32,000 nucleotides of DNA from Xanthomonas campestris pv. campestris str. ATCC 33913 (GTDB lineage Bacteria > Pseudomonadota > Gammaproteobacteria > Xanthomonadales > Xanthomonadaceae), in NCBI RefSeq assembly GCF_000007145.1, contig NC_003902.1, positions 1,207,436 to 1,239,435 on the forward strand. Reading direction: 5' to 3'. The notes under the pieces were generated by a model. That model saw nothing but the letters and a program-made list of their open reading frames with translations. It made no database searches and was not told where the DNA came from. Positions 9,908 to 28,303 of the stretch are shown in pieces. Both the position numbers and the translations under genes were made by a program. Numbering within the stretch: the stretch's first letter is position 1; every line of letters starts with the position of its first letter.

Positions 9908-11233
9908 TCACCCGATGCGCATTGCCGAACCCTCACGCACCCGGTTGTCCATCTCCTGCTGCTGGCTTTGCACTAATGCCTGTTGGCGATCCGTGTTGGC
10001 AATTTCCAGCCGCTGCAGCGATTGCTCAACCGGCGTCTGCACCGCGACATCGGTCGGCATGTGAGCGCGCAGGTGCGCGGGGTTATTCAATTCGCCCTGT
10101 ACAACAAACACGTGACGCCCGGCGGGGCTGTCGGCTGTCTGTGTGCTCAGCACCACGTGATCGGCGCGGTCCAGGTTGTTCTGGCGGGCGAGGGTCATCA
10201 CGCTGGCGATGAGGCGCTCACTGTTCTCGTCCGGTGTGCGCCCGGCTTGCGCATCGATGGCGTTGACGCCTGCGCGGACCTGCTGCAGCAATGCATAGTC
10301 CCGGTGGCCAGGCCCAATATCGGCCAGTTGGGTGGGCGCCTGTTTCGGGTCTAGAACGCCATCGACCGACGCGGTTAACGGGCTGCGGGTGATGGAGCGG
10401 TGCGGGTCGTCCTCATGAAACTGCGTGGCTTTGTGCTGCCGTTCCATGCGGACGGCGCGGGTATCGTTGAGTTCGGCGATACGGCCGGGATTGGTCTCTT
10501 CGCGCATGGAAAGATGCCCGCCGCCTGCGCTGACATTCACCCATTTTTGCTCTTTTTCGAAGTACATCGCATAGAAGCTGTTGCTGCCGATCACATTGGG
10601 ATCGACCGCGGAGCGGCCTTCCAGCATCTGGATCGCGTCGGTCGTCCCCAGCTTTGCCAGGTACTGGCTGCCGTCCACCACCCCCATTTGCGCAAAGGTC
10701 TCGTAGCCCGTGTTGCTGATACGGGTGGTGCCGGCGTACTCGTTGTCGAGCATGTTGGTCCAGATCTGCTCCAGCTTCTGGGGGCCGCTTTTTTCCAATG
10801 CCGCTTGCAGAAGGACGCGAGGCGTCCAGCAGTTGGGGTCGAGCTCATGGTCCAGGAAGGCTTGGTCGTGCGCCAGCATGACGGAGGCCCCGGGCAGGTT
10901 CAGCGCCAGATCTGGACGATCTTGACGGAACCAGATTTTCCGAAGTTCAAGATCCTTCTTGAGCAGTGTCTGTCCAAAATCCTCCCACTGCCGCTCGCTC
11001 AAGTCCGCGTTGGCAAAACGAGAGCCAGTATCGTGCTGTGTCCTGGCATAGTCTTGCGCGTAACTGTTGGCCACTTGGCCGGGCAAGCTGTCGTTGCGCA
11101 CCACGCCCAGCGCCAGCGTACCGTAGCCGTCCGCGCCATCCAGCTGCGAAAGATAGTTCCAGTACAACTCGCGATTGCCTTTATCCGCGTAGTTGGTAAG
11201 GATCTTGAGATCTTGCCCAGTCAATCCACTCAT
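9908..11233 (-). CDS. Putative X-T4SS effector (X-Tfe): unknown N-terminal toxin domain plus C-terminal XVIPCD secretion domain
   Basis: 441 aa. The C-terminal 132 aa (9908-10306) read ..SERLIASVMTLARQNNLDRADHVVLS....VFVVQGELNNPAHLRAHMPTDVAVQTPVEQSLQRL followed by a Gln-rich tail. This fits the XVIPCD pattern and is clearly homologous to the tail of the 16317-17981 gene. GGGAG RBS. The gene starts 25 nt after a lipoprotein gene. Confidence 0.8.
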   Translation of the reverse strand: MSGLTGQDLKILTNYADKGNRELYWNYLSQLDGADGYGTLALGVVRNDSLPGQVANSYAQDYARTQHDTGSRFANADLSERQWEDFGQTLLKKDLELRKIWFRQDRPDLALNLPGASVMLAHDQAFLDHELDPNCWTPRVLLQAALEKSGPQKLEQIWTNMLDNEYAGTTRISNTGYETFAQMGVVDGSQYLAKLGTTDAIQMLEGRSAVDPNVIGSNSFYAMYFEKEQKWVNVSAGGGHLSMREETNPGRIAELNDTRAVRMERQHKATQFHEDDPHRSITRSPLTASVDGVLDPKQAPTQLADIGPGHRDYALLQQVRAGVNAIDAQAGRTPDENSERLIASVMTLARQNNLDRADHVVLSTQTADSPAGRHVFVVQGELNNPAHLRAHMPTDVAVQTPVEQSLQRLEIANTDRQQALVQSQQQEMDNRVREGSAMRIG

Positions 11234-11258
11234 ATTTTACTCCCTGTCAGTAGACCGA

Positions 11259-12122
11259 TCACCTGACTTTGGTGCGTGCCAGTACTTCTTTTACTGCATC
11301 CTCCATGCGTTTCCAGTCCTTCAAGAATGCACGCTTGTAGTTGAGAGTGATGGAAAGTTTGTTTTCGATATCGGAGAAGTAGTGGACGCAACTTGCAGCG
11401 ACGGCACCTTTTTCATGGACTACTTCAGATCCCTCCAGCCGAACGCCATCTCCTCGGAATTTTTTGCTGTCGCACTTGATGAATGTGGTCAAATTGCCGC
11501 TGGAGTCGCGCGCGACGTACCAGTCGTCCTCAAACGCAGGGTTGCGCGTTGGAGGCTTGCCGTAGTGGGCTTCGTACGCTTTAACGTACACCGCCATCTT
11601 TTCTTCATCGATGGCATACGGCGTCAATCCGAGTGTTTCAGGCTGTGCAATACGCAGATCGAGTCTGTCGACGGGATCACCCCGTTCGACAGAATCAGGC
11701 TCGGTAAGCGCTTCGTTAGACGAATAACGTGCCAGCAATCCTTCGATGGGGACACGGTCAACATAATTCATCGAGGCATGGATCTCCTTGCGGAAATCAT
11801 TCGTGCGCGGGTTCGCCCGCGCACCGGGCGGGGTGGGGGTCATATCTGGCCACTCGATGACCAGCGTCACCACCTCGATGGACCACGGTGCGATCTGGCT
11901 ATCCAGATAGTTGGCGGGGATGCGGAAGGTGTTCGGCCCTAGCTTCACATCGACGGGAGCATCCGAATAGGTGTGCCCGTTGATGGTGCGGCCTGTGGTA
12001 ACGGTGCCTGACATGGGGGAAGTCCTTTTTTGTTCGGGTGATGGCGTCCGTGCACAGGCACTGCCGGTGACAGCGATGGCGAGTGCAAGGGCCAGGCACC
12101 GGCCGGATGACATCATGTGCAT
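11259..12122 (-). CDS. Putative cognate immunity lipoprotein (X-Tfi-like)
   Basis: 287 aa. Lipoprotein signal MHMMSSGRCLALALAIAVTGSA-C. It lies immediately upstream of the XVIPCD gene on the same strand and looks visibly lower in GC than its neighbours. Confidence 0.65.
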   Translation of the reverse strand: MHMMSSGRCLALALAIAVTGSACARTPSPEQKRTSPMSGTVTTGRTINGHTYSDAPVDVKLGPNTFRIPANYLDSQIAPWSIEVVTLVIEWPDMTPTPPGARANPRTNDFRKEIHASMNYVDRVPIEGLLARYSSNEALTEPDSVERGDPVDRLDLRIAQPETLGLTPYAIDEEKMAVYVKAYEAHYGKPPTRNPAFEDDWYVARDSSGNLTTFIKCDSKKFRGDGVRLEGSEVVHEKGAVAASCVHYFSDIENKLSITLNYKRAFLKDWKRMEDAVKEVLARTKVR

Positions 12123-16316: not shown

Positions 16317-17981
16317 ATGGCTCGGGTCATAGAGTTCAATATCAAAGAGCGTGCGGATGAAGTGGTGGTGTTGTTCAATGCGAACCGTCCAGCAGACGCG
16401 GTGGCATTGCTGGAACAACACCGCCAGGGACAGCCTGAGGTCGTGCGAGAAAGCATGGACCGTTATGTCGGCAGCCAGGCAGAGCGCGGCATCGCCAGCG
16501 GTGCTGAAGGCCCGCAGACACCCTCCGTAGCAGCAGGGCTACAGCGCCTACAAGGCATCCCAACAACTCCACCGAGATTTCCAGCCGAAGCGGAGATGGC
16601 GGTTCTTTCCGACCGGCAGAAGTACGACGTCTACGCAAGTATCGCCCAGGCTCGCGGCAACACGGCCGCGGATCAATCGCTGGCCACGCCAGGGCAACGG
16701 GTCATCTTGGGGTTGCGCCAAGAAAACTCCACGCTCGACGCCATGGTAGATTCGGCTCATCCAACGCAACGAGCGGCAGATAACCCGGCAACTGCGCGTG
16801 ACGAATCGCGTGGCGGCAGTGGCGTCTACAACGACCGCTTGGTCGTCTTGTGGAAGGATGCTGACGGCACCCCGCACGTGGTGGAATCCAATCGCGCCAA
16901 TACAGAGCCCACCGCGCAATACGACCATCACGCCGGCAATACGGGAGCGAGGCCGCTGGGCGAGGGCGGCCGCGAGAATCGACGATTCGATCCTTCCCCT
17001 GGGTTTGAAAGCATTACGCGGCCCCGCAAGATCGAAGGTGACGACGTCAATGCAGACGGCGTTCGAGATCTTGGACGTCTGCATGACGGCACGATCGAAA
17101 TGCAGAGGGCGCAGCATCCCAATCCTTTGCTGGCCGGAACCCTGGACGACGCGCTGAGGCCCAGTCAGGCTGCGGTCACCGCAGGGCGCGAGATGGTGCA
17201 GCGAGACAGCAATGCCGATGGTTGGTTCGATTAGACCGATGTCAACGGTACGCAGGATCTCAACGACACGTTCAAGATCCATCGCGGATCACGTGGAAGT
17301 ACGGATTCCGCCGGTTGCCAGACGATCCACGCGGACGACTACGACGCGTTCATGGATGCTGTTCAAGGCAACCCCGCACAAACGCGCTGGCAATACGTGC
17401 TGACCAGCACCACGCCCGGGCCGGTGCGGGAGCAGCAACGGGACCAAGGGCGAGGGAATGAAGGGGCACAGCCAGGGCAGGAGGAGCGGGGGCATCCGCC
17501 GGCCCAGCCGCAGCGGCAGAACGGCGGGCCTGCAGCGCCTGTGCCTGGGAGGCCACGACAGGCAGACGCAGAAGACGCCCAACCCGCGCCTCACCCGTTG
17601 CATGCGCAGGCCAGCACCTTGGTCGGCCGGCTGGACGCCAGCATGGGCCGCGCCAGCGATGCGCACAGCGAGCGGATGAGCGCCAGCCTTGCGCACTTGG
17701 CAAAGGAGCATGGGCTTGAGCGGATTGATCACGTAATGCTGAGCAACCAAACATCGCGTGCAGCGGCCGGTGCCACCGTGTTCGTGGTACAGGGCGAACC
17801 CAGCAACCCGGCCCATCTGCGCGCCAGCATGCCCACCGATCTGGCTGTCACTACGCCGGTGGAGCAGTCGCTGGCAAAGCTGCAGGAGCTAGATGCGCGT
17901 ACCTTGGCGCAAGCGCAGAGTCAGGCGCAGGAAAGAGCGGTGGCTCAGGAAGAGGCGGTCAAGCCCCGGAGTATTGGGTGA
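16317..17981 (+). pseudogene. XVIPCD-tailed X-T4SS effector gene interrupted by one in-frame TAG (17232-17234)
   Basis: ORFs 16317-17234 and 17352-17981 are in the same frame. Reading through the single TAG gives a continuous 553-codon product. The C-terminal 129 aa (17592-17981) are an XVIPCD homologous to the 9908-10306 tail, preceded by a Pro/Gln/Gly-rich linker. Confidence 0.75.
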
Positions 17982-18108: not shown

Positions 18109-18639
18109 GTGGAATTGAAGCCCCAGGATCTGGTGGTGCTGTACAAGCAAGTCGCCCAGGCGAACCAAACCTGGACCTATGCCTCGCTGGGAGAAGCGCT
18201 GGGCATGAGCGCCTCTCAGGTGCATCGCAGCGTCAAGCGCGCGGTGGCATCTGGTTTGGCTCTTGAAAAAAGCCGGGGCGAGTGGGAGACGGTGCGCACG
18301 GCTTTGCACGAGTTTGCGGTCCACGGCGTGCGCTATGCCTTTCCTGCCGTCATCGGGCCGCTAAAGCGCGGCATTCCGACCTCCTTTGGCGCGCCTCCTC
18401 TGTCCATTGCCATTTCCAGCGCCCCAGGGGACGCACCGGTATGGCCAAGCGCGCAGGGCACGTCCAAAGGGCCTAGCTTGTCGCCGTTGTCAGCCGGTGT
18501 GCCCACTGCTGCGATGGCCGACCCTGCCTTGCATGCGCTGCTGGCGCTGCAGGATGCCCTGCGCAGCGGGCGTGCCCGCGAGCGCGCGCTGGCAGCAAGC
18601 TATCTCAAGCAATTGCTGGGGATTGGTGATGCGGCCTGA
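18109..18639 (+). CDS. Winged-helix/HTH protein, AbiEi-like antitoxin/regulator candidate
   Basis: 176 aa, GTG start. The N-terminal TYASLGEALGMSASQVHRSVKRAVASGL is HTH-like. The 3' end overlaps the next gene by 11 nt. Confidence 0.55.
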   Translation: MELKPQDLVVLYKQVAQANQTWTYASLGEALGMSASQVHRSVKRAVASGLALEKSRGEWETVRTALHEFAVHGVRYAFPAVIGPLKRGIPTSFGAPPLSIAISSAPGDAPVWPSAQGTSKGPSLSPLSAGVPTAAMADPALHALLALQDALRSGRARERALAASYLKQLLGIGDAA

Positions 18640-19315
18640 TGATCCTAATCTGCCGCATCTGCTTGTGATTGCGGATGCATTGGGCGAGCTTCGCGAACAC
18701 GTAGTCTTTCTTGGCGGGGCAGTGGTTGGCCTGCTGGTGTCGGATCCATTGGCTGAAAACGTCCGCGCCACCTATGACGTCGATGCGGTGGTCAATCTTG
18801 ATTGGTCTCGGTTTCGCGGTATTGAGGCGCGTGTGGAATCGCAGGGCTTCGCGCGCGAGATGCAGAGCGGCGTCGTCTGCCGCTGGGTACACAAAGCATC
18901 GGGCTTCATCTTCGACTTGATGCCAGTGGATGAAGGCGTGCTTGGATTCTCCAACCGCTGGTACGCCCATGCTGTAGAGACGGCCCAAGTGGTGGCCTTG
19001 AGCGATCGCCTGTCCATCCGTTTGGTGACAGCGACAGCATTCGTGGCGACCAAGCTCGAAGCCTTCGTTACCCGAGGCAACAGTGACTTCCTTTCCAGTC
19101 ACGACCTAGAGGACGTCCTCAATGTCGTCGATGGCCGGGCCGAGCTGGTGGAAGAGCTTGCCGTGGAGCATGCAGACCTTCGGCATTGGGTTGCCGACGT
19201 GTTTTTGGGGCTAGTCGATAACCCGACGTTTGTGAATGCGTTGCCGGGATTGGTCGCCGAACCGGAGCGCGCAAGCGTCGTGCTTCAGCGCCTACGCACC
19301 ATTGCATCAGCGTAG
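18629..19315 (+). CDS. Pol-beta-fold nucleotidyltransferase, AbiEii-like toxin candidate
   Basis: 228 aa from ATG 18629. FLGGAVVGLL..NVRATYDVDAVV (GG..R.T.DxD), FIFDLMPV (second acidic motif) and ATKLEAF (K..A) match the NTase motif order described for AbiEii/DUF1814-type toxins. Confidence 0.6.
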   Translation: MRPDDPNLPHLLVIADALGELREHVVFLGGAVVGLLVSDPLAENVRATYDVDAVVNLDWSRFRGIEARVESQGFAREMQSGVVCRWVHKASGFIFDLMPVDEGVLGFSNRWYAHAVETAQVVALSDRLSIRLVTATAFVATKLEAFVTRGNSDFLSSHDLEDVLNVVDGRAELVEELAVEHADLRHWVADVFLGLVDNPTFVNALPGLVAEPERASVVLQRLRTIASA

Positions 19316-19370: not shown

Positions 19371-19393
19371 TTGCGATCATGCATCGCAATTGC
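19371..19393. promoter_or_regulatory. Overlapping inverted repeats upstream of the ParD-like gene (possible operator)
   Basis: TTGCGAT-catgc-ATCGCAA (19371-19389) overlaps the palindrome GCAATTGC (19386-19393), about 20 nt before ATG 19411. Confidence 0.4.
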
Positions 19394-19410
19394 AACGCAC
19401 TGGGCCGGCC

Positions 19411-19674
19411 ATGAAATCCGCATCACTTCCATCGCTCCGGGTAGACCCGGCGCTGCGCGAAGCGGCCGAAGCCGTGTTGCAGGAGGGTGAGACGCTTTCC
19501 AGCTTTGTCGAGCACTCCGTGCGTGCCCAGGTGCAGCAGCGCCAGCAGCAGGAAGCCTTCATTGCCCGTGGGCTGGCTTCGCGTGACAGCGCCAAGGCAT
19601 CCAACCGGTACATCGAGGCGAAGGATGTGCTGGCCGGGCTGCAGTCCCAACTGGACAAGGCGCGCAAGGGCTGA
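19411..19674 (+). CDS. RHH-type antitoxin, ParD/CopG-like
   Basis: 87 aa. The N-terminal beta-strand/helix pattern SLRVDPALREAAEAVLQEGETLSSFVEHSV fits a ribbon-helix-helix. It lies directly upstream of a ParE/RelE-like gene. Confidence 0.6.
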   Translation: MKSASLPSLRVDPALREAAEAVLQEGETLSSFVEHSVRAQVQQRQQQEAFIARGLASRDSAKASNRYIEAKDVLAGLQSQLDKARKG

Positions 19675-19680
19675 GCCAGC

Positions 19681-19989
19681 GTGGGATATTCCGTCCGCTT
19701 CACTCAGTACGCGCGCAACGATCTCGCGCGTCTTTACGACTGGCTGCTACAGCGTGCCGAAAGCGGCTTCACCGTGGTCGAGCGCGCGCTGCAGGCCATC
19801 CGCGACGGCGTCACCGTGCTGGCACTTGCCCCGTTGAGCTGCCGCAAGGCGGTGCCGGCAGACCCGTTCTTGCGGGAGTTGGTGATCGGCTTCGGTGCCA
19901 GCGGCTATGTGCTGCTGTTTGAGGTTGAAAGCAATCAGGTCGTCACCGTTTTGGCAGTCAGGCATCAGCGTGAAGACGACTATCATTGA
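19681..19989 (+). CDS. ParE/RelE-family toxin
   Basis: 102 aa, GTG start 6 nt after the antitoxin stop. Y..A..DL..LYDWL.. followed by LRELVIGFGASGYVLLFEVESNQVVTVLAVRHQRE is the typical ParE/RelE C-terminal beta-sheet. Confidence 0.75.
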   Translation: MGYSVRFTQYARNDLARLYDWLLQRAESGFTVVERALQAIRDGVTVLALAPLSCRKAVPADPFLRELVIGFGASGYVLLFEVESNQVVTVLAVRHQREDDYH

Positions 19990-20026: not shown

Positions 20027-23000
20027 ATGCCCGGGCAGGGCCAAAATCAGGGGTTAAAGATAGTGAGTGACCAGTTTTTCAAGCAGCCTATTCTCAATTC
20101 TCCATACGGTTACCCGTCTTTGCACTGGGAGCTCGACGAAAAGGGGCAACCTACACAGCAAGTAGTCAAATCTCGCCGAGCATCCAGCTTCGTTAGTCCG
20201 ATTCCAAAGCCACGTCGGCACCAGGGCGAGCAGGCTACCCTGGCGCTGGATGAAGTTGAGAGCCTGGCTGACGACGGGCAGCGCTACCGACACTCTGAGC
20301 TAATCAATTCGGTGCGGCGGGAGGTCGATGCTTGGCGTCTCTTGCCACCTGCGCAGTGGCGCGTCACCCCTGAAACAGCCCGCTTACTGGAACATTGGCG
20401 CAACCACAAGTTCGCCGGTGTGCGCCCATTCTTTTGCCAAGTAGAAGCGGCCGAGACCGCCATCTGGTTGGCCGAGGTCGCTCCACAGCTTGGAAAGAAC
20501 GGCGAGCGCTTCCTCGATCACCTGAAAAAGGCCAGCACTGATGCCAATCCCGGCTTGATGCGTTTGGCGCTGAAGCTGGCGACTGGTGCAGGCAAGACCA
20601 CGGTCATGGCCATGCTCATTGCCTGGCAGACGGTTAATGCCGTACGGCATCCGCAGAGCAAGAAATTCACCCGTGGTTTCTTGCTGGTCGCTCCTGGCCT
20701 GACCATCAAGGATCGTTTGCGTGTGCTATTGCCCAATGATGCAGACAGCTACTACGCCAACCGCGAAATCGTGCCACGCGACATGCTGGCCGATTTGGAC
20801 AAGGCCAAGATCGTTATCACCAATTACCACGCTTTCAAGCGACGTGAACGCATGGAGCTGTCCAAGGGCGGCCGCCGCCTGTTGCAAGGCCGTACCGGCA
20901 GCGAGCTGGAAACGCTGGAAACCGAGGGACAGATGCTCCAGCGAGTCATGCCGGAATTGATGGGGCTGAAGAATATTCTTGCCATCAACGACGAGGCACA
21001 CCATTGCTATCGGGAGAAGCCGCACGCTGCCGTAGACGATGAAGATCTCGATAAAGATCAGAAAGCGGAAGCCGAGGACAACAATGAAGCCGCTCGGCTT
21101 TGGATTTCTGGCCTAGAAGCGGTCAACCGCAAGCTGGGGCTGCAGCAGGTGATGGACCTGTCTGCAACGCCTTTCTTCCTGGCCGGCTCTGGCTATGTGG
21201 AGGGCACGCTCTTTCCGTGGACGATGAGCGATTTCTCGCTGATGGACGCTATCGAATGCGGCATCGTCAAGTTGCCGCGCGTGCCGGTCGCCGACAACAT
21301 TCCCGGTGCGGAAATGCCCATCTATCGTGAGCTCTGGAAGCACATAGGCAAGAAGATGCCGAAGAAGGGGCGCGGCAAAAACGCCCAGCTCGATCCATTG
21401 GCCATCCCGGTGGAATTGCAGACCGCACTGGAAGCTCTGTACGGCCACTACCTCAAAACCTACGAAGCTTGGAAGCAGGCAGGCATCAACGTTCCGCCAT
21501 GCTTCATTGTGGTGTGCAACAACACCGCAACTTCCAAACTGGTGTTCGATTACATCTCCGGCTTCGAGCGCACGAATGAGGATGGCTCCAGCACGCGTGT
21601 GCCAGGCCGGTTGGAGCTGTTCCGCAACTTCGACGAACATGGCGAGCCGCTGGCGCGCCCAAACACCTTGCTGATCGACAGCGAGCAACTCGAATCTGGC
21701 GAGGCGCTGGACGATAACTTCCGGGGGATGGCCGCCGACGAGATCGAACGCTTCAAGCGCGAGATCATCGAGCGCACCGGCGATCGCGGCCAGGCTGAGA
21801 ACCTGAGTGACAGCGAATTGCTGCGAGAGGTAATGAACACCGTGGGCAAGCAGGGCCGCTTGGGCGAACAAATTCGCTGCGTGGTGTCGGTGTCCATGCT
21901 CACGGAAGGTTGGGATGCCAATACCGTTACCCACATCCTCGGGGTGCGTGCGTTCGGCACCCAACTGCTGTGCGAGCAGGTGATTGGCCGTGCCCTGCGT
22001 CGTCAGTCCTATGAATTGAACGAACAAGGCCTCTTTGACGTGGAGTACGCCGACGTATTCGGCATCCCCTTCGACTTCACAGCCAAACCAGTCGTCGTCA
22101 CGCCGCCCAAGCCCCGCGAAACCATCACAGTCAAGGCACTGCGCCCGGAACGCGATCATCTGGAAATCTGGTTCCCGCGCGTGCAGGGCTATCGCGTCGA
22201 GCTGCCAGAAGAACAACTCGAAGCTGAATTCAACGACGACCACCACGTCAGCCTGACGCCCGACAGGGTTGGTGCGACCAAGACCCACAACGCCGGCATC
22301 ATTGGCGAGGCAGTGGAGCTGGATATCAAGCATCTGGGAGACGTGCGCCAGTCCACCCTGCTGATGGAGTTGACCAAGCATCTGCTGTTCCAGCATTGGC
22401 GTGATAAAGGCCAGGATGCACCGATTGCATTGTTTGGTCAGCTCAAGCGCATCGTGCGCCAGTGGCTGGACGAGTGCCTGGAGTGCAAGGGCGGCACGTA
22501 TCCGGCGCAGTTGATGTACCGCGAACTGGCGGACATGGCCTGCCAGCGCATCACCAAGGGTATTACCGCGAAGGAACTGGAAAAGGGCCGGCAGGTCAAA
22601 GCCATCCTCGACCCATTCAACCCGACCGGCAGCACCGCGCACGTGCGTTTCAACACTTCGCGTCCGGGCAGTGAACGCTGGGAAACCCTCGGTGTAGAGA
22701 ACCAGCCGAAAAACCAGGTCAACTGGGTGATTCTGGACAGCGGCTGGGAAGGCGAATTCTGTCGCATCGCCGAATCGCATCCCAAGGTGCTGGCCTACAC
22801 CAAGAACCACAACCTCGGCCTGGAAGTACCCTACCGCTTTGGCTCGGCCAACCGCATCTACATACCTGACTTCATCGTTCAAGTGGACGATGGTCGCGGC
22901 AAGAACGATTCACTGAATCTGATCGTCGAGATCAAGGGCTACCGGCGCGAAGATGCGAAGGAGAAGAAGTCCACCATGGACACCTACTGGATTCCTGGCG

Positions 23001-23149
23001 TGAACCACCTCGGCACACACGGTCGCTGGGCCTTCGTCGAGTTTGGTGACGTTTACGAAATGCAGGATGACTTCGCCAAAGAGGTCGAGGCGAAGTTCAA
23101 CCAAATGATTGAAACGGCTGTGCCCGCGCCGGGAAACAAGGAATACTGA
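20027..23149 (+). CDS. Type III restriction Res-like subunit: SF2 DEAH helicase with a C-terminal PD-(D/E)xK nuclease
   Basis: Walker A TGAGKTT (20582-20602), DEAH (20990-21001), motif VI QVIGRALRR, and a C-terminal IPDF..(20 aa)..VEIKG nuclease-like motif. The alternative GTG start at 20063 gives MSDQFFKQPILNSPY. Confidence 0.85.
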   Translation: MPGQGQNQGLKIVSDQFFKQPILNSPYGYPSLHWELDEKGQPTQQVVKSRRASSFVSPIPKPRRHQGEQATLALDEVESLADDGQRYRHSELINSVRREVDAWRLLPPAQWRVTPETARLLEHWRNHKFAGVRPFFCQVEAAETAIWLAEVAPQLGKNGERFLDHLKKASTDANPGLMRLALKLATGAGKTTVMAMLIAWQTVNAVRHPQSKKFTRGFLLVAPGLTIKDRLRVLLPNDADSYYANREIVPRDMLADLDKAKIVITNYHAFKRRERMELSKGGRRLLQGRTGSELETLETEGQMLQRVMPELMGLKNILAINDEAHHCYREKPHAAVDDEDLDKDQKAEAEDNNEAARLWISGLEAVNRKLGLQQVMDLSATPFFLAGSGYVEGTLFPWTMSDFSLMDAIECGIVKLPRVPVADNIPGAEMPIYRELWKHIGKKMPKKGRGKNAQLDPLAIPVELQTALEALYGHYLKTYEAWKQAGINVPPCFIVVCNNTATSKLVFDYISGFERTNEDGSSTRVPGRLELFRNFDEHGEPLARPNTLLIDSEQLESGEALDDNFRGMAADEIERFKREIIERTGDRGQAENLSDSELLREVMNTVGKQGRLGEQIRCVVSVSMLTEGWDANTVTHILGVRAFGTQLLCEQVIGRALRRQSYELNEQGLFDVEYADVFGIPFDFTAKPVVVTPPKPRETITVKALRPERDHLEIWFPRVQGYRVELPEEQLEAEFNDDHHVSLTPDRVGATKTHNAGIIGEAVELDIKHLGDVRQSTLLMELTKHLLFQHWRDKGQDAPIALFGQLKRIVRQWLDECLECKGGTYPAQLMYRELADMACQRITKGITAKELEKGRQVKAILDPFNPTGSTAHVRFNTSRPGSERWETLGVENQPKNQVNWVILDSGWEGEFCRIAESHPKVLAYTKNHNLGLEVPYRFGSANRIYIPDFIVQVDDGRGKNDSLNLIVEIKGYRREDAKEKKSTMDTYWIPGVNHLGTHGRWAFVEFGDVYEMQDDFAKEVEAKFNQMIETAVPAPGNKEY

Positions 23150-23150
23150 T

Positions 23151-26069
23151 ATGGCAACGAAGAAAACAGAGAAGCACGGCAAGAGTATCGAGCAGATCAC
23201 TCATACCGAGGCCAAACGCAAGAACATTCCGACGGTGGAGCATCAGTCGGTGATGCAGCATCACGAGCAAGCGCCGGTGCAGGTGGCCTACCCACGTGCC
23301 AACCGGCAATGGTTAGAGGAACTGTGCGCTTTGCATGACGCGGGAAAGGTCTCCCAGGAATTCCAGCAGCGACTTAACCGCGATCTTGACCCGCAACTCA
23401 TCTGGCGCGGCAAGGACCAGCAGGATTGGTCGGATCTGGTCGTCAACGCGCCGCCTCTCTACATCCAGGAAAAGGTCAAGCCCAAGGCGCTGATCGACGA
23501 CCTGCGCCGTCAGACCGACGCGCGCCGCGAAGCCGCCGCGCCGCAGCAGCAGGACATGCTGGATCTATTCGGCGACTTCAACGGCCTGCCCGAAGGCGCG
23601 GACCGCACCGAGTTCTACCAGCACGAGGGCCATTGGCAGAACCGTATGATCCTGGGCGATTCCTTGCAGGTGATGGCCAGCCTGGCCGAGCGCGAAGGGT
23701 TGCGCGGCAAGGTGCAGTGCATTTATTTCGATCCGCCGTATGGCATCAAATTCAACAGCAATTTCCAGTGGTCAACCACTAGCCGTGATGTGAAGGATGG
23801 CAATACCGGCCATATCACTCGCGAACCGGAGCAGGTTAAGGCGTTCAGGGATACCTGGCGCGACGGGATTCATTCGTATCTGACGTATTTGCGTGACCGA
23901 TTGATGGTGGCGCGGGATTTGTTGACGGAATCTGGGTCGATCTTTGTGCAGATTGGTGATGAGAACGTGCATCGCGTGCGGGCTGTGCTTGATGAAGTTT
24001 TTGGCGAAGATAACTTTGTCTCTATGATTCAGGTGCAAAAAACAGGTAGCCAAGCGTCAAATCTTTTGGCGAATACAGTTGACTTTGTTTTGTGGTATGC
24101 CCGCACAAAGAAAAAAGTCAAATATCGACAGCTTTACTCGGACCGCACTGCAGGGCATGTTTCTTCCGATCGCTACGATCAAATCGAACTTGACGACGGC
24201 GAAGAACGTCGGCTTAAGCGTGATGAATTGGATAGAAAGGTTGAAATTCCGCCAGGCCGAATTTTTCGGCAAACTAGCCTAATATCATCTGGTCAAGCGT
24301 CAAGCGAACAAATCTTTGTTTTTCAGAACAAGCAATATCGTCCGGGTGCATCGAATCATTGGAAAACGACAGTCAGTGGTCTTGGCGTTCTTGCAAAGGC
24401 AGGGCGTATTGCGGCAGGCGCGTCAACGGTGCACTACAAACGCTATCTTAATGACTTCTCCGTTTTGCCTATCGCAGATCGTTGGGAGTCGCTGCAAATC
24501 GGCACGGGCTTGATCTACGTTGTGCAAACCGCAACCTCAGTCGTAGAGAGGTGCCTGTTGATGGCATCCGACCCTGGCGATCTAGTGCTCGACCCTACCT
24601 GCGGCTCCGGTACCACCGCCTATGTTGCCGAACAATGGGGACGCCGGTGGGTGACCATCGACACAAGTCGCGTCGCGTTAGCACTGGCCCGCGCGCGGAT
24701 AATGGGAGCGCGCTACCCGTATTATCTACTGGCCGATTCCCGCGAAGGTCAATTGAAGGAGGGCGAGATTACCCGCTGCGCGCCCTCCAGCCAGCCCGCC
24801 TGGGGTAACATTGTCCACGGCTTCGTCTATGAACGCGTGCCACACATCACGCTCAAATCCATCGCCAACAACGCCGAGATTGAAGTCATCTGGGACAAGT
24901 TCCGGACTACGCTGGAGTCGCTGCGCGAAAAGCTGAGCCATGCACTCGGCAAGCAGTGGAAGGAGTGGGAGATTCCGCGCGAAGCCGATGCAAAATGGAG
25001 CCATACCGCGAAAGAGTTGCATGCCGACTGGTGGCAGCAACGAGTCGCCTGCCAAAAGGAAATTGACGCCTCGATCGCGGCCAAGGCCGAGTTCGAGTAC
25101 CTCTACGACAAACCCTACGGGGACAAGAAGAAGGTGCGAGTGGCGGGCCCCTTCACGGTTGAATCGCTTAGTCCGCACCGCGTATTGGGCGTGGACGAGG
25201 AAGACAACCTGATTGACCATGTGGCCGAGACCCAAGCCGAATACGGTCAGGACTTTGCCAGCCTGATCCTGGCCAACCTGCGCACCGCCGGTGTGCAGCA
25301 GGCACGCAAGGCCGACAAGATCGAATTCACCTCACTAGAGCCGTGGCCGGGCGAACTGGTCTGCGCCGAAGGCCGCTACCTCGAAAATGGACAGGTGAAG
25401 CGTGCCGGCATCCTAGTTGGTCCGGAATTTGGCACGGTCACCCGCGCTGACCTAGTTGATGCCGCCCGCGAAGCGGGTGATGCCAACTTCGATGTACTAA
25501 TTGCCTGCGCCTTTAACTACGACGCTCCTGCCAGCGAGTTCAGTAAGCTGGGCCGCATCAATGTACTCAAAGCGCGCATGAATGCCGAGCTACACATGGC
25601 CGAAGACCTGAAGAACACCGGCAAGGGCAATCTGTTCGTGATCTTCGGCGAGCCGGATGTGGACGTGCTGGACACACAGGGTCACAGCATCCGCCGATAC
25701 GATGGCAAGCGTGACGTTATCGAGGTACCTGCCGACGGGCAACTGGTGGTGCGCATCAACGGCGTGGATGTATTCCATCCCAGCACCGGTGAAGTGCGTA
25801 GCGACGGTGCAGACGGCATCGCCTGCTGGTTTTTGGATACCGACTACAACGAGGAATCCTTCTTCGTCCGCCATGCCTACTTCCTCGGCGCGAACGACCC
25901 GTACAAGGCTCTGAAGACTACCCTCAAAGCTGAAATCGACCCCGACGCCTGGGCAACGCTCAACTGCGACACCTCGCGCCCTTTCCCGAAACCGAGTAAC
26001 GGTCGGTTTGCGGTGAAGGTCATCAATCACCTCGGTGATGAGGTGATGAAGGTATTTAAGGTGAACTGA
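23151..26069 (+). CDS. Beta-class (motif IV before motif I) N6-adenine-type DNA methyltransferase, 972 aa, Mod-like with a long C-terminal extension
   Basis: DPPY at 23730-23741 and DPTCGSGTT at 24591-24617. AAGGAA RBS. ATG lies 1 nt after the Res stop. About 440 aa follow motif I. Confidence 0.9.
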   Translation: MATKKTEKHGKSIEQITHTEAKRKNIPTVEHQSVMQHHEQAPVQVAYPRANRQWLEELCALHDAGKVSQEFQQRLNRDLDPQLIWRGKDQQDWSDLVVNAPPLYIQEKVKPKALIDDLRRQTDARREAAAPQQQDMLDLFGDFNGLPEGADRTEFYQHEGHWQNRMILGDSLQVMASLAEREGLRGKVQCIYFDPPYGIKFNSNFQWSTTSRDVKDGNTGHITREPEQVKAFRDTWRDGIHSYLTYLRDRLMVARDLLTESGSIFVQIGDENVHRVRAVLDEVFGEDNFVSMIQVQKTGSQASNLLANTVDFVLWYARTKKKVKYRQLYSDRTAGHVSSDRYDQIELDDGEERRLKRDELDRKVEIPPGRIFRQTSLISSGQASSEQIFVFQNKQYRPGASNHWKTTVSGLGVLAKAGRIAAGASTVHYKRYLNDFSVLPIADRWESLQIGTGLIYVVQTATSVVERCLLMASDPGDLVLDPTCGSGTTAYVAEQWGRRWVTIDTSRVALALARARIMGARYPYYLLADSREGQLKEGEITRCAPSSQPAWGNIVHGFVYERVPHITLKSIANNAEIEVIWDKFRTTLESLREKLSHALGKQWKEWEIPREADAKWSHTAKELHADWWQQRVACQKEIDASIAAKAEFEYLYDKPYGDKKKVRVAGPFTVESLSPHRVLGVDEEDNLIDHVAETQAEYGQDFASLILANLRTAGVQQARKADKIEFTSLEPWPGELVCAEGRYLENGQVKRAGILVGPEFGTVTRADLVDAAREAGDANFDVLIACAFNYDAPASEFSKLGRINVLKARMNAELHMAEDLKNTGKGNLFVIFGEPDVDVLDTQGHSIRRYDGKRDVIEVPADGQLVVRINGVDVFHPSTGEVRSDGADGIACWFLDTDYNEESFFVRHAYFLGANDPYKALKTTLKAEIDPDAWATLNCDTSRPFPKPSNGRFAVKVINHLGDEVMKVFKVN

Positions 26070-28147
26070 TGGAATTCCGGATCGCCGATACGTTTACTAC
26101 CAGCCTTGCCCGCTTGACCGGTGATGAGCAGAAGGCCGCCAAGACCACCGCGTTCGATTTGCAGGTTAATCCGAGCGGCAAGGGTATGAGCTTTCATAAG
26201 CTCGACAGGGCCAAAGACCTGAATTTCTGGTCAGTGCGCGTCAGCCGTGACATCCGTCTGATCGTTCACAAAACAGCGGGCAGCCTGTTGCTGTGCTACG
26301 TCGATCACCACGACAGGGCCTATCAATGGGCCGAGCGGCGCAAGCTTGAGGTGCATCCGACGACCGGCGCGGCACAACTCGTCGAGATCCGCGAACGTGT
26401 CGAGGAAATCCTCGTTCCGAAGTACGTCGAGGATCGTGCATCGGCTACGCGCCCTAAGCCGAAATTTTTCGAAAAATACAGTGATGCGCAATTGCTGGCC
26501 TATGGCGTGCCGCAGGAATGGCTAGGCGATGTAAAGGCTAGCGATGAGGATTCGCTGCTGGATTTGGCTGATCACCTGCCGGGCGAAGCGGCCGAGGCGC
26601 TGCTCGAACTTGCGACCGGCGGTACGCCTGCGTTGCCGGAAGTGGCGAGCAAAGGAGCAGACCCATTCCAGCACCCCGATGCGCAACGCCGCTTCCGCGT
26701 CATGTCTGATATGGACGAGTTGGTTCGCGCCCTTGAGTATCCATGGGACAAATGGACTGTGTTCCTACATCCGGCACAGCGGCAACTCGTCGAACGGAAT
26801 TACAACGGAGCGGCGCGCGTGTCCGGCTCGGCGGGCACGGGAAAAACTGTGGTGGCTTTGCACCGCGCTGTGCATCTGGCACATAAAGATGAAGACGCAC
26901 GTGTTCTGCTTTCCACGTTTTCCGATACCCTGGCCAACGCGTTGCGCGGCAATCTGTACCGACTTATCTGGAACACTCCTAAGCTCGGCGAGCGTATCGA
27001 CGTGGCTGCGATGGAGGCTATCGGTATTCGCTTGTATTCAGCGGAATTTGGCAAGCCAGTATTCGCTAGCCGGGATGAAATTTCCACTCTGCTGAAGGCT
27101 GCCGCCATGCAAGTCGATGGCCTGAAAGCCAACACTGCATTCATGCTCTCCGAATGGGAGGACGTGGTAGACACCTGGCAGGTCGATGACTGGGAGAGTT
27201 ACCGGGATGCCAAGCGGTTGGGCCGAAAGACGCGCCTACCGGAGGTGCAGCGCGCCTTGTATTGGCAGGCATTCGCCCAAGTAAAGTCACAGTTGGAACA
27301 GGCTGGCAAGATCACTGCCGCTGAAATGTTCGCTAGGCTTGCCGAAGTCATGCCCAAGCGTAAGCATCCGGTATTCGATTACATCGTGGTGGATGAGGCG
27401 CAGGACATTAGCGTGCAACAATTGCGCTTCCTTGCAACGATTTCCGGCAATCGCGCCAATGCACTCTTTTTCTCTGGCGACCTCGGCCAACGCATCTTCC
27501 AGACGCCGTTCTCGTGGAAACATCTGGGTGTTGATGTGCGTGGTCGATCGCGCACGCTCAATATCAATTACCGTACGTCACACCAGATTCGCTTGCAGGC
27601 CGACCGGCTACTCGGCCCCGATGTATCTGATGTGGACGGAAACGTCGAAAGCCGTAAGGGCACAATTTCCGTGTTCAATGGGCCGGAGCCGACCATCTGC
27701 AGCTATGCCGATGCCGACGCGGAAATCCAGGCTGTCGGTGTATGGTTGAAACAATGCAATAGCAGTGGCGTGCTGCCGCAGGAAATAGGTCTCTTTGTCC
27801 GGTCCGAAAGTGAATTGTCTCGCGCACAAGCGGCAGTAAAGGCCGCTGACCTGCAAGGGCGCGCACTTGGTAAGGACATGGCCACGGAAGAGAGCTTCGT
27901 CACTATTACCACCATGCATTTAGCCAAGGGCATGGAATTTCGCGTGGTTGCGGTGATGGCCTGCGATGATGAAATCATTCCTTCACAGATGCGCATCGAC
28001 ACTGCTGCCGACGAGGCCGATTTGACCGAAATCTACAATACCGAGCGCCAGTTGCTGTACGTGGCTTGCACCCGTGCCCGCGATCAGCTGCTTGTCTCGG
28101 CAGTGAAGCCGGAGTCTGAGTTTTTGCGAGATCTGGTGCAAGAGTAA
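26069..28147 (+). CDS. SF1 UvrD/Rep-like helicase with an N-terminal RelE/ParE-like domain
   Basis: ATG overlaps the Mod stop (TGATG). Motifs: GSAGTGKT (26825-26848), VVDEAQD, GDLGQRIF, INYRTSHQI, TMHLAKGMEFRVV and LLYVACTRARDQL. N-terminal roughly 90 aa: F..SL..L...EQ....TAFDLQ.NP..KG...HKL.......WSVRVSRDIRLIVHK...SLLLCYVDHHDRAYQWA. Confidence 0.85.
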   Translation: MEFRIADTFTTSLARLTGDEQKAAKTTAFDLQVNPSGKGMSFHKLDRAKDLNFWSVRVSRDIRLIVHKTAGSLLLCYVDHHDRAYQWAERRKLEVHPTTGAAQLVEIRERVEEILVPKYVEDRASATRPKPKFFEKYSDAQLLAYGVPQEWLGDVKASDEDSLLDLADHLPGEAAEALLELATGGTPALPEVASKGADPFQHPDAQRRFRVMSDMDELVRALEYPWDKWTVFLHPAQRQLVERNYNGAARVSGSAGTGKTVVALHRAVHLAHKDEDARVLLSTFSDTLANALRGNLYRLIWNTPKLGERIDVAAMEAIGIRLYSAEFGKPVFASRDEISTLLKAAAMQVDGLKANTAFMLSEWEDVVDTWQVDDWESYRDAKRLGRKTRLPEVQRALYWQAFAQVKSQLEQAGKITAAEMFARLAEVMPKRKHPVFDYIVVDEAQDISVQQLRFLATISGNRANALFFSGDLGQRIFQTPFSWKHLGVDVRGRSRTLNINYRTSHQIRLQADRLLGPDVSDVDGNVESRKGTISVFNGPEPTICSYADADAEIQAVGVWLKQCNSSGVLPQEIGLFVRSESELSRAQAAVKAADLQGRALGKDMATEESFVTITTMHLAKGMEFRVVAVMACDDEIIPSQMRIDTAADEADLTEIYNTERQLLYVACTRARDQLLVSAVKPESEFLRDLVQE

Positions 28148-28274
28148 TCGCTCGAGTTTTGGATTCTTCAGGGAATCGACAACCGAATGCGGTTTTTTGC
28201 GAGTCTTCTTGACTCATTGTAATTTGGGTAGCAATCTAGCGGTACGGAGCCTCGAAACTCCCCGTACAGCGGTA

Positions 28275-28303
28275 CCCACCTCCGACAAACCGGTGGGTTT
28301 TTT
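28275..28303 (+). terminator. Rho-independent terminator downstream of the Res-Mod-helicase operon
   Basis: CCCACC (28275-28280) pairs with GGTGGG (28292-28297) and is followed by TTTTTT (28298-28303). A weaker AACCG/CGGTT+TTTT hairpin lies at 28181-28199. Confidence 0.6.

Follow-up and report, generated by a model that had tools for sequence, protein, structure and literature searches.

In the chromosome of Xanthomonas campestris pv. campestris ATCC 33913, three long open reading frames (ORFs) on the + strand are packed tightly enough to look like one operon, coding for a restriction subunit (Res, 1040 amino acids, aa), a DNA methyltransferase (Mod, 972 aa) and a helicase (692 aa). Which kind of system do they form, and does the helicase belong to it? 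We addressed these questions in a window of 32,000 nucleotides (nt), the whole stretch of DNA analysed, from whose first letter all coordinates are counted (Table 1). An earlier reading of the letters, called the original prediction below, had taken the trio for an undescribed defence system. We found that the third protein is, judged by its sequence, a homologue of ArmD, the last protein of the ARMADA type II defence system, in a non-ARMADA setting. We consider it probable that the trio is a methylation-based anti-phage and anti-plasmid system, in which a restriction-modification (R-M) core resembling type III is joined by a co-inherited ArmD-family helicase that acts after non-self recognition. 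The identities of the genes, their intact catalytic motifs, their co-inheritance, the homology to ArmD and the diversification of the target-recognition domain (TRD) of Mod were established here.

The type III-like pair of Res and Mod

Res was assigned to the NCBIfam family NF046055, "BPTD_3080 family restriction endonuclease", with 1350.7 bits against a curated equivalog cutoff of 800. The match spanned residues 18-1019 and profile positions 1-969 of 970, and plasmid homologues of Res carry the same BPTD_3080 name in RefSeq annotation. Pfam placed a ResIII ATPase at residues 175-382 (expectation value, E, of 9e-10) and a weak, sub-threshold RE_endonuc match at residues 900-981; no sequence relative of Res was found in the PDB. 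The motifs comprised a Walker A (GAGKT, 187-191), a DEAH box (322-325), motif VI (651-659) and the nuclease residues P947-D948...E968-x-K970. When the window sequence was aligned with 74 homologues, G187, G189-T191, D322, E323, H325, H326, P947, D948, E968 and K970 were invariant (75/75). Since the homologues align from residues 7-18, the true start of Res may lie a few codons downstream.

Mod was matched by the REBASE-derived PADLOC model MTase_III (PDLC03632) with 1898 bits, over residues 1-971 and profile positions 1-983 of 983. Pfam placed N6_N4_Mtase at residues 188-511 (8e-31), and the closest PDB matches were the type III Mods 6k0w, EcoP15I Mod (4zcf) and Mbo45V. Motif IV (DPPY) is at residues 194-197 and motif I (DPTCGSGTT) at 481-489, and the DPPY together with the motif I core (D481, P482, C484, G485, G487 and T488) was invariant in all of the 124 aligned sequences. 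In type III (beta-class) Mods the TRD sits between motif IV and motif I. Among 123 full-length homologues, mean pairwise column identity was 0.23-0.44 at Mod residues 281-440, compared to 0.89-0.95 in the flanking catalytic blocks. A hypervariable stretch enclosed by blocks conserved above 0.9 indicated that the family diversifies its specificity, as working R-M systems do.

Counted from its ATG (the mechanical ORF list begins earlier, with a TTG at 23109), Mod exceeds the solved type III Mods (567-644 aa) by about 330 aa, in good agreement with the excess of about 300 aa that had been claimed. Classical type III Mods do not have the conserved C-terminal extension, and residues 520-972 gave no Pfam match at E<0.1 and no PDB sequence match. 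Conservation of the extension in the family was mostly 0.64-0.92, with one 40-residue block (841-880) at 0.39; it may have a structural role or provide a surface to which Res or the helicase docks. A weak match to the Cas3 HD domain was also seen at Mod residues 48-77 (23292-23381; Pfam E=0.0012; TIGR01596 27 bits against a cutoff of 43). This stretch is poorly conserved (column identity 0.29), and the match is most likely spurious.

The pair thus resembles type III R-M systems (EcoP15I and EcoP1I; Mod2Res) in its beta-class DPPY Mod, in which motifs IV and I enclose the recognition domain, and in a Res composed of a helicase-like ATPase of superfamily 2 (SF2) and a C-terminal PD-(D/E)xK nuclease. 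It differs in gene order, as had been noticed before: res precedes mod here and in all close relatives, whereas the classical order is mod then res. A family member of R. etli, with 33% Res identity, has the classical mod-then-res order. The long Mod extension, the separate BPTD_3080 Res family, the third gene and two slots for cargo genes further set the locus apart. The locus deviated in its gene order and was not recognised by the canonical type III Res models; it was therefore filed as type III-like (BPTD_3080 family).

Table 1. Positions of the operon features in the window
Feature	Position	Strand	Content or basis
Res, type III-like restriction subunit, 1040 aa	20027..23149	+	SF2 helicase-like ATPase and C-terminal PD-(D/E)xK nuclease
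res stop/mod start junction	23147..23153	+	TGA-t-ATG, 1-nt spacer; direct sequence reading
Mod, beta-class N6-adenine (or N4-cytosine) DNA methyltransferase, 972 aa	23151..26069	+	
Predicted target-recognition region of Mod, aa ~281-440	23991..24470	+	Hypervariable in the family
Conserved C-terminal extension of Mod, aa ~520-972 (~450 aa)	24708..26066	+	
mod stop/helicase start overlap	26067..26071	+	TGATG, 1-nt overlap; direct sequence reading
ArmD-like helicase, 692 aa	26069..28147	+	RelE-fold N-terminal domain, helical linker region, UvrD/PcrA/Rep-type SF1 core
RelE/YoeB-fold domain (modelled), aa ~1-106	26069..26386	+	Fold search against the PDB
SF1 helicase core, aa 233-692	26765..28144	+	Pfam UvrD-helicase (2e-16) and UvrD_C (9e-16)
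Two terminator-like hairpins past the helicase stop	28201..28303	+	First at 28201-28215, by consensus scan
Second terminator-like hairpin	28275-28303	+	CCCACC...GGTGGG followed by a T-run; read from the sequence

An ArmD homologue tied to Res and Mod

The two junctions, a 1-nt gap and a 1-nt overlap, were confirmed exactly as the original prediction gave them, leaving the three genes as one tightly coupled unit. In compact homologous loci the gap between Mod and the helicase is likewise small (2-12 nt).

The third protein had been called a complete UvrD-like helicase of superfamily 1 (SF1), and its Pfam domains, motifs and structure model all agreed. The N- and C-terminal UvrD domains of Pfam span residues 234-679, and all SF1 motifs are intact, including Walker A (GSAGTGKT, 253-260), motif II (DEAQD, 442-446) and motif VI (VACTRAR, 665-671); K259, D442 and E443 were invariant in 117 of 117 aligned sequences. 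The AlphaFold model (predicted local distance difference test, pLDDT, 87.1; predicted template modelling score, pTM, 0.80) had its best Foldseek matches in UvrD of D. radiodurans and E. coli, PcrA and Rep, with E down to 2.6e-22. PADLOC matched the protein to GajB (best E=3.9e-25), "NERD+UvrD", AbiO and DRT-associated helicase models, those of GajB and "NERD+UvrD" through the helicase core only. The likeness to Gabija, many of whose GajB models were matched, ends with this core. GajB does not have a RelE-fold N-terminal domain, Gabija involves no methyltransferase, and no gene for GajA, the OLD-family ATPase-TOPRIM nuclease, was found within 18-29 kb.

The N-terminus had been proposed to carry a toxin-like domain of the RelE fold, and the structure models supported such a fold. 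In a separate AlphaFold model of residues 1-232 (pLDDT 86.6, and above 90 over residues 1-100), Foldseek placed residues 1-90 on YoeB (2a6r), RelE (3g5o and 3bpq) and YafQ (4mmj), with target-normalised template modelling (TM) scores of 0.67-0.77, root-mean-square deviations of 2.3-3.0 A, E of about 1e-4 and a probability of 1.00. Cami1 (8phj), a RelE-fold defence effector, was also among the matches. Sequence profiles stayed below threshold, the Pfam HigB match reaching E=0.032 and 15.1 bits against a cutoff of 27. With hhalign, helicase residues 51-81 aligned with residues 53-83 of E. coli YoeB. R65 and H83, catalytic residues of YoeB, fell on helicase R63 and H81 in this alignment. H43, R63, H80, H81, Y85 and W87 were invariant in 117/117 aligned sequences, and the RelE-fold domain was among the best-conserved parts of the helicase (0.75-0.80). 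When the N-terminal domain was searched against 1.84 billion representatives, 3203 matches were obtained; the best 150 of them were the same helicase family or fragments of it, and therefore revealed no alternative architectures. A survey of RelE/ParE multidomain proteins mentions no helicase fusions (PMC11980606).

A protein of this composition is known from ARMADA type II, which consists of ArmA (SNF2-like), ArmB (a PglX-like methyltransferase), ArmC (YprA-like) and ArmD, the terminal RelE-UvrD helicase, there termed "GajB-like" (Bell et al., 2025 preprint, 10.1101/2025.09.15.676423). Deleting any one of the four arm genes, or the ArmD substitution K266A, abolished protection against HK022, whereas D454N left partial protection; protection was direct and non-abortive, with infected cells intact and metabolically normal (10.1101/2025.09.15.676423). 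Compared to the last gene product of the ARMADA II locus on E. coli pQnrS1_005237, the helicase of the window was 33% identical over residues 5-686 (E=2e-79). When plasmids were searched by tblastn with the helicase of the window, the matches fell into two classes. Those of the first class (46-100% identity overall) adjoin BPTD_3080 Res/Mod genes, as seen at 46-86% identity. The second class (28-36%, full length) consisted of the last genes of loci coding for an SNF2 protein, a methyltransferase of about 1600 aa, a DEAD-box protein of about 2100 aa and the UvrD protein; these loci of ARMADA II layout were hosted by E. coli, Thermus, Microvirga, Nostoc, Haematobacter and Cylindrospermopsis. In an alignment of BPTD_3080-linked and ARMADA-linked helicases the RelE-site residues and the helicase motifs were invariant, and K259 and D442 corresponded to ArmD K266 and D454, the residues mutated in the ARMADA preprint.

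The trio nevertheless shares exactly one module, ArmD, with ARMADA II. Both have a homologous terminal protein of about 700 aa, with a RelE fold and a GajB/UvrD-like SF1 helicase, which comes last after a methyltransferase/helicase-nuclease core and overlaps or abuts the preceding gene. In contrast to ARMADA II, the trio lacks the YprA-like (DUF1998) ArmC, the family-defining protein: none of the three proteins matched a DUF1998/YprA model, and the locus has no gene of ArmC size (about 2000 aa). Gene 1 is of the ResIII/BPTD_3080 type and not an SNF2/BrxHII-like ArmA, and gene 2 is a DPPY beta-class methyltransferase and not a PglX-like gamma-class (NPPW) ArmB. The text of the ARMADA preprint mentions neither a type III nor a BPTD_3080 context (10.1101/2025.09.15.676423).

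We further investigated whether the helicase is syntenic with this Res/Mod family beyond chance, a check that the original prediction had proposed and that came out in its favour. A scan of one genome per species returned more than 571 relatives of the helicase in many phyla, of which the best 80 (61-91% identity, full length) were kept. Mod lay 5' of the helicase in 45 of the 46 loci that had the full 10 kb upstream, and Res was also in reach in 43 of them. Where found in these helicase-centred loci, the order was always res, mod, helicase on one strand, and the trio occurred in Proteobacteria, Acidobacteriota, Nitrospirota, Verrucomicrobiota, Latescibacterota and other phyla. This arrangement, recurring in order and in strand in dozens of genomes spread over many phyla, is thus not due to chance. 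Pairwise identities of Res and of the helicase at 51 loci were correlated with a Mantel r of 0.83, which was reached by 0 of 999 permutations. The correlation of Res with Mod was looser (r=0.55), since variation of the TRD loosens Mod. In a test centred on Mod in metagenome contigs, none of the Mod loci with 5 kb or more upstream was without Res, and the helicase followed within 10 kb downstream at 14 of the 20 close Mod loci with full reach. Plasmid relatives of Res at 52% identity or more carry the helicase. The helicase thus depends on the BPTD_3080 R-M genes, whereas the R-M genes are not strictly dependent on the helicase.

Copies of the helicase that had neither Res nor Mod were seen at two loci, L037 (a metagenome-assembled genome of Betaproteobacteria, 66% identity, 10 kb upstream seen) and L176 (an IMG/VR contig, 55% identity, 5.7 kb upstream seen); such solitary copies could show whether the helicase acts alone. 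They are part of the case for regarding the helicase as an independent single-gene defence protein, comparable to Nhi, AbiO or GajB-type proteins, that merely sits as cargo at the end of an R-M operon. The locus does accumulate unrelated defence genes, and the PADLOC matches of the helicase core include GajB, AbiO and DRT-associated helicases. We nonetheless regard this explanation as quite improbable. The cargo is diverse (88 clusters for 138 ORFs), whereas the helicase is one orthologous family, 58-97% identical between loci, that invariably comes last and never lies on the other strand. Its divergence follows that of Res more closely than the divergence of Mod does, in compact loci it is translationally coupled to Mod, and the ARMADA homologue is a fixed terminal subunit without which the system fails.

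Several observations were made on more distant or mobile relatives. Among Xanthomonas, Bordetella, Burkholderia and Pseudomonas the helicase is 80-97% identical, which indicates recent horizontal transfer. It was found on just 4 of 2.9 million IMG/VR viral contigs (L174-L177), and on two of these it formed part of the full trio, so that plasmids and genomic islands, and not phages, seem to be the main vehicles of the system. On a plasmid of Hymenobacter canadensis (L086, 14816-20318, Res 37%), the genes after Mod code for a DUF4747 protein, a hypothetical protein and two DUF2075 (Schlafen-type SF1) helicases, with no ArmD-like helicase among them, and the DUF2075 helicases may have replaced the terminal helicase as its analogues. 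A 624-aa protein 3' of Mod on pAQ5 of PCC 7002 was considered as a diverged helicase and rejected, having no similarity to it. A paper on P. syringae pv. actinidiae describes a disrupted "type III" island of about 7 kb, which could belong to the BPTD_3080 family.

Cargo slots and possible modes of action

The genes abut in the window; in relatives, the gap between Res and Mod measured 0-4.6 kb and that between Mod and the helicase 0-9.4 kb. A survey of these two slots in loci L001-L080 and L088-L167 gave 138 ORFs, nearly all co-oriented, in 88 clusters. Representative contents, either known defence systems in complete form or candidate ones, were IetA with IetS, DRT UG14, SoFic, SIR2-pAgo, PD-Lambda-5 A and B, PDC-M32A, PDC-S06, HamA with HamB (Hachiman), Dsr1 and a TIR effector, and on plasmids CBASS and toxin-antitoxin pairs were carried as slot cargo. 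Complete known defence systems nested in the operon support a defence role for the Res/Mod/helicase frame. Conserved R-M genes that frame variable defence-gene inserts are also seen at type I R-M and BREX loci; here, by contrast, the frame is Res, Mod and an ArmD-like helicase with two slots.

The commonest cargo of slot 1 was a protein of about 490 aa with DUF4062, HATPase_c_4 and Fic-like_C domains, found at nine loci (L016, L017, L019, L026, L042, L047, L063, L066 and L069) and resembling pAgo-associated PNTD regions in PADLOC (E=5.6e-14). Several recurrent slot ORFs without a PADLOC or Pfam match are candidates for new defence genes, for example a triplet of 251-254, 178-182 and 140-141 aa in L041, L028 and L023 and a pair of 349-352 and 268 aa in L032 and L044.

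Could the trio serve something other than defence, as an epigenetic regulator, a mobile DNA-repair module or a selfish addiction module? Identities of 80-97% between distant genera show that the locus travels on mobile DNA, a ParDE-like pair lies immediately 5' in the window, and helicases of the UvrD family are classically repair enzymes. Such a role appeared extremely unlikely, in that an intact nuclease and methyltransferase with a hypervariable recognition region are a signature of restriction and not of regulation, known defence systems are nested inside the operon, and the ArmD homologue is experimentally a defence component. Addiction and defence are moreover not mutually exclusive for R-M systems.

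The defence reading suggests the following course of events. Mod would methylate a short sequence read by its variable recognition region, marking host DNA as self, and would guide Res to unmethylated sites on incoming DNA. The helicase would be an accessory partner that acts after recognition and strengthens restriction in an ATP-dependent, direct and non-suicidal way. Most likely it would load at a nick or break made by Res, or at a stalled complex, and unwind the invader DNA, so that repair or replication would be stopped and the DNA fed to nucleases. The RelE-fold domain may contact RNA or the ribosome, cleave RNA or dock other proteins. In relatives, the operon would double as a scaffold whose slots between Res and Mod and between Mod and the helicase carry complete unrelated defence systems.

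A number of points weigh against this reading or parts of it. The defence activity of the trio, contact between its proteins and every step of the helicase are what we infer. The canonical type III Res model NF012027 gave 18.6 bits on Res against a cutoff of 564, and the best PADLOC REase_III match (E=2.4e-4, 17 bits) covered 44 residues only; with the canonical models barely matching, two-site, hemimethylation behaviour is therefore an assumption. A profile search of the PDB with the helicase N-terminus returned only noise and no RelE. The resemblance to YoeB was derived from a structure model and a single profile comparison, and any RNase activity is putative. At 6 of the 20 close Mod loci no helicase was found within 10 kb; some of these operons clearly end, and at others long same-strand cargo continues past Mod. 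Res/Mod relatives at 45% and 40% Res identity are also without the helicase. With the helicase missing at some close and all distant (45% or less) Res/Mod loci, Res-Mod therefore likely restricts on its own, and the contribution of the helicase could be small or specific to certain phages. In enterohaemorrhagic E. coli, deletion of armD was the mildest of the four ARMADA deletions (10.1101/2025.09.22.677730).

The main rival explanation assigns the trio to guarded, abortive defence. Res-Mod would be the first line and the RelE-UvrD protein a latent toxin, kept inactive by the R-M complex or its own helicase domain. Inhibition of R-M by a phage, or a build-up of DNA ends or replication intermediates, would switch on the RelE-fold RNase, ribosome-bound mRNA would be cut and translation would halt, comparable to PrrC/EcoprrI and to the CARF-RelE protein Cami1 of type III CRISPR. 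The invariant residues at active-site positions equivalent to those of YoeB in the RelE/YoeB fold and the presence of Cami1 (8phj) among the fold matches speak for this explanation. An add-on guard would also fit the asymmetric dependence, in which the helicase almost never occurs without R-M and R-M often without the helicase. RNases attached to R-M systems as PrrC-like second lines are established in comparative genomics (PMC3710099), and PrrC/EcoprrI resembles the trio in that an RNase-fold module is genetically tied to an R-M system. The difference is that the anticodon nuclease PrrC has an ABC-type ATPase head and lies inside a type I locus, whereas here the fusion is one of a RelE-like fold with an SF1 helicase. 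The ARMADA data lend no support to abortive behaviour, ARMADA II being non-abortive and the sole system with a tested ArmD homologue. Moreover, no antitoxin-like gene is conserved beside the helicase, and the RNase activity of its RelE-fold domain is putative. We therefore rate the guard explanation as rather unlikely and prefer direct restriction with the helicase as accessory partner.

We also compared the trio with other named systems. MANTIS/Gao_RL (MtsABCD) consists of a DUF499 AAA+ protein (MtsA), a DUF3870 protein (MtsB), a BREX-type methyltransferase and a PLD-SF2 protein (MtsD) (bioRxiv 10.64898/2026.09.23.753747). It is similar in methylation-based self-marking, a helicase-nuclease effector and a second NTPase, and is reminiscent of type III logic in that it hemimethylates asymmetric sites and prefers inverted pairs of sites. 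Identity with MANTIS/Gao_RL was rejected on domain content, none of the three proteins giving a DUF499, DUF3870 or PLD-SF2 match in Pfam or PADLOC. Models of DISARM, BREX, Hachiman, Nhi, Hma and MADS were not among the best 25 listed matches of the PADLOC (PADLOC-DB, 2023 release), Pfam and NCBIfam scans, in line with the view that the trio differs from DISARM, BREX, Gabija, Hachiman and Nhi. The defining proteins of ARMADA, Gabija, MANTIS, DISARM and BREX are absent, and the trio is therefore none of these. No named multi-gene system emerged when the three proteins were scanned, so that the assignment by PADLOC that would have refuted the original prediction did not occur. PADLOC recognised Mod alone, through MTase_III, and current tools would miss or under-call the system.

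In the open-access and bioRxiv literature searched, we found no description of the trio or of the two-slot frame and nothing under the name BPTD_3080. The claim of an undescribed architecture stood for the combination, which goes unnamed in PADLOC and in this literature. It was overstated for the parts, in that Res falls in NF046055, Mod in MTase_III and the helicase is an ArmD homologue. New, as far as the searched literature goes, are the combination, its breadth and the two-slot frame; the system is not categorically new.

Genomic surroundings and wider meaning

G+C content over 20-28 kb was 0.53-0.59, compared to 0.62-0.66 in the flanks. The two hairpins after the helicase likely mark the end of the operon; neither hairpin alone is evidence of function. 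A consensus sigma-70 scan found no promoter 5' of res and is uninformative for this organism, and no direct or inverted repeats longer than 11 nt that could bound an island were found between 17.7-19.5 kb and 28.1-28.8 kb. Just 5' of res, across a gap of 37 nt, lies a toxin-antitoxin pair (19390-19674 and 19681-19989, both +) in which a YlcI/YnfO-type small protein (NCBIfam, 1e-13) is paired with a ParE toxin (Pfam, 6e-14). This ParDE-like pair may share a transcript with the trio; ParE was absent from all of the loci L001-L080, and the pair is thus not conserved. Further upstream, a 309-aa ORF (18386-19315, +) matched PDC-M21B, a protein of a PADLOC candidate system (E=3.8e-61); it had no Pfam or NCBIfam match, and its partner PDC-M21A was not identified. 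With this ORF, the low-GC defence island may therefore begin near 18.3 kb.

The rest of the window was Xanthomonas-type chromosome, with hflK/C-like Band 7 proteins, adenylosuccinate synthetase, aminopeptidase N and a type IV secretion effector accompanied by its inhibitor. This effector (XVIPCD, 1.5e-29) adjoins a Smlt3025-family inhibitor (545 bits) at 9908-12122 (-). About 6 kb away, a 209-aa ORF (17352-17981, +) matched only the C-terminal third of a Smlt3024-family effector (positions 313-432 of the 436 in the profile) and looks like a truncated effector copy beside the island.

For the biology of these systems, the results have several implications. ArmD has so far been seen only inside ARMADA II, among three very large proteins, and the same helicase as the third gene of a simpler R-M core suggests that ArmD serves methylation-based restriction in general as a modular partner. 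This core, of about 8 kb, combines two enzyme types that are well understood and has homologues in over 570 species-level genomes, which makes it tractable for asking what a RelE-fold/SF1-helicase fusion contributes to restriction. The type III paradigm is extended to a locus in which res comes first, Mod is long and the Res family falls outside the canonical models. The two-slot frame provides a practical handle for new defence genes, because many of the slot ORFs have no PADLOC or Pfam match. Tentatively, a broader view may be taken, in which two things hold together. The ArmD-family helicase would be a portable effector that plugs into unrelated methylation-based cores (YprA/PglX in ARMADA II, the type III-like Res/Mod here) and couples DNA-level non-self recognition to RNA cleavage or DNA-end processing, and the Res, Mod and helicase operon would be a dedicated carrier that, in its two slots, recruits and co-expresses whole defence systems (Hachiman, IetAS, DRT, Dsr1, pAgo and CBASS) in at least a dozen phyla. 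If this is true, the portable effector and its carrier would represent an undescribed, widespread class of composite defence locus.

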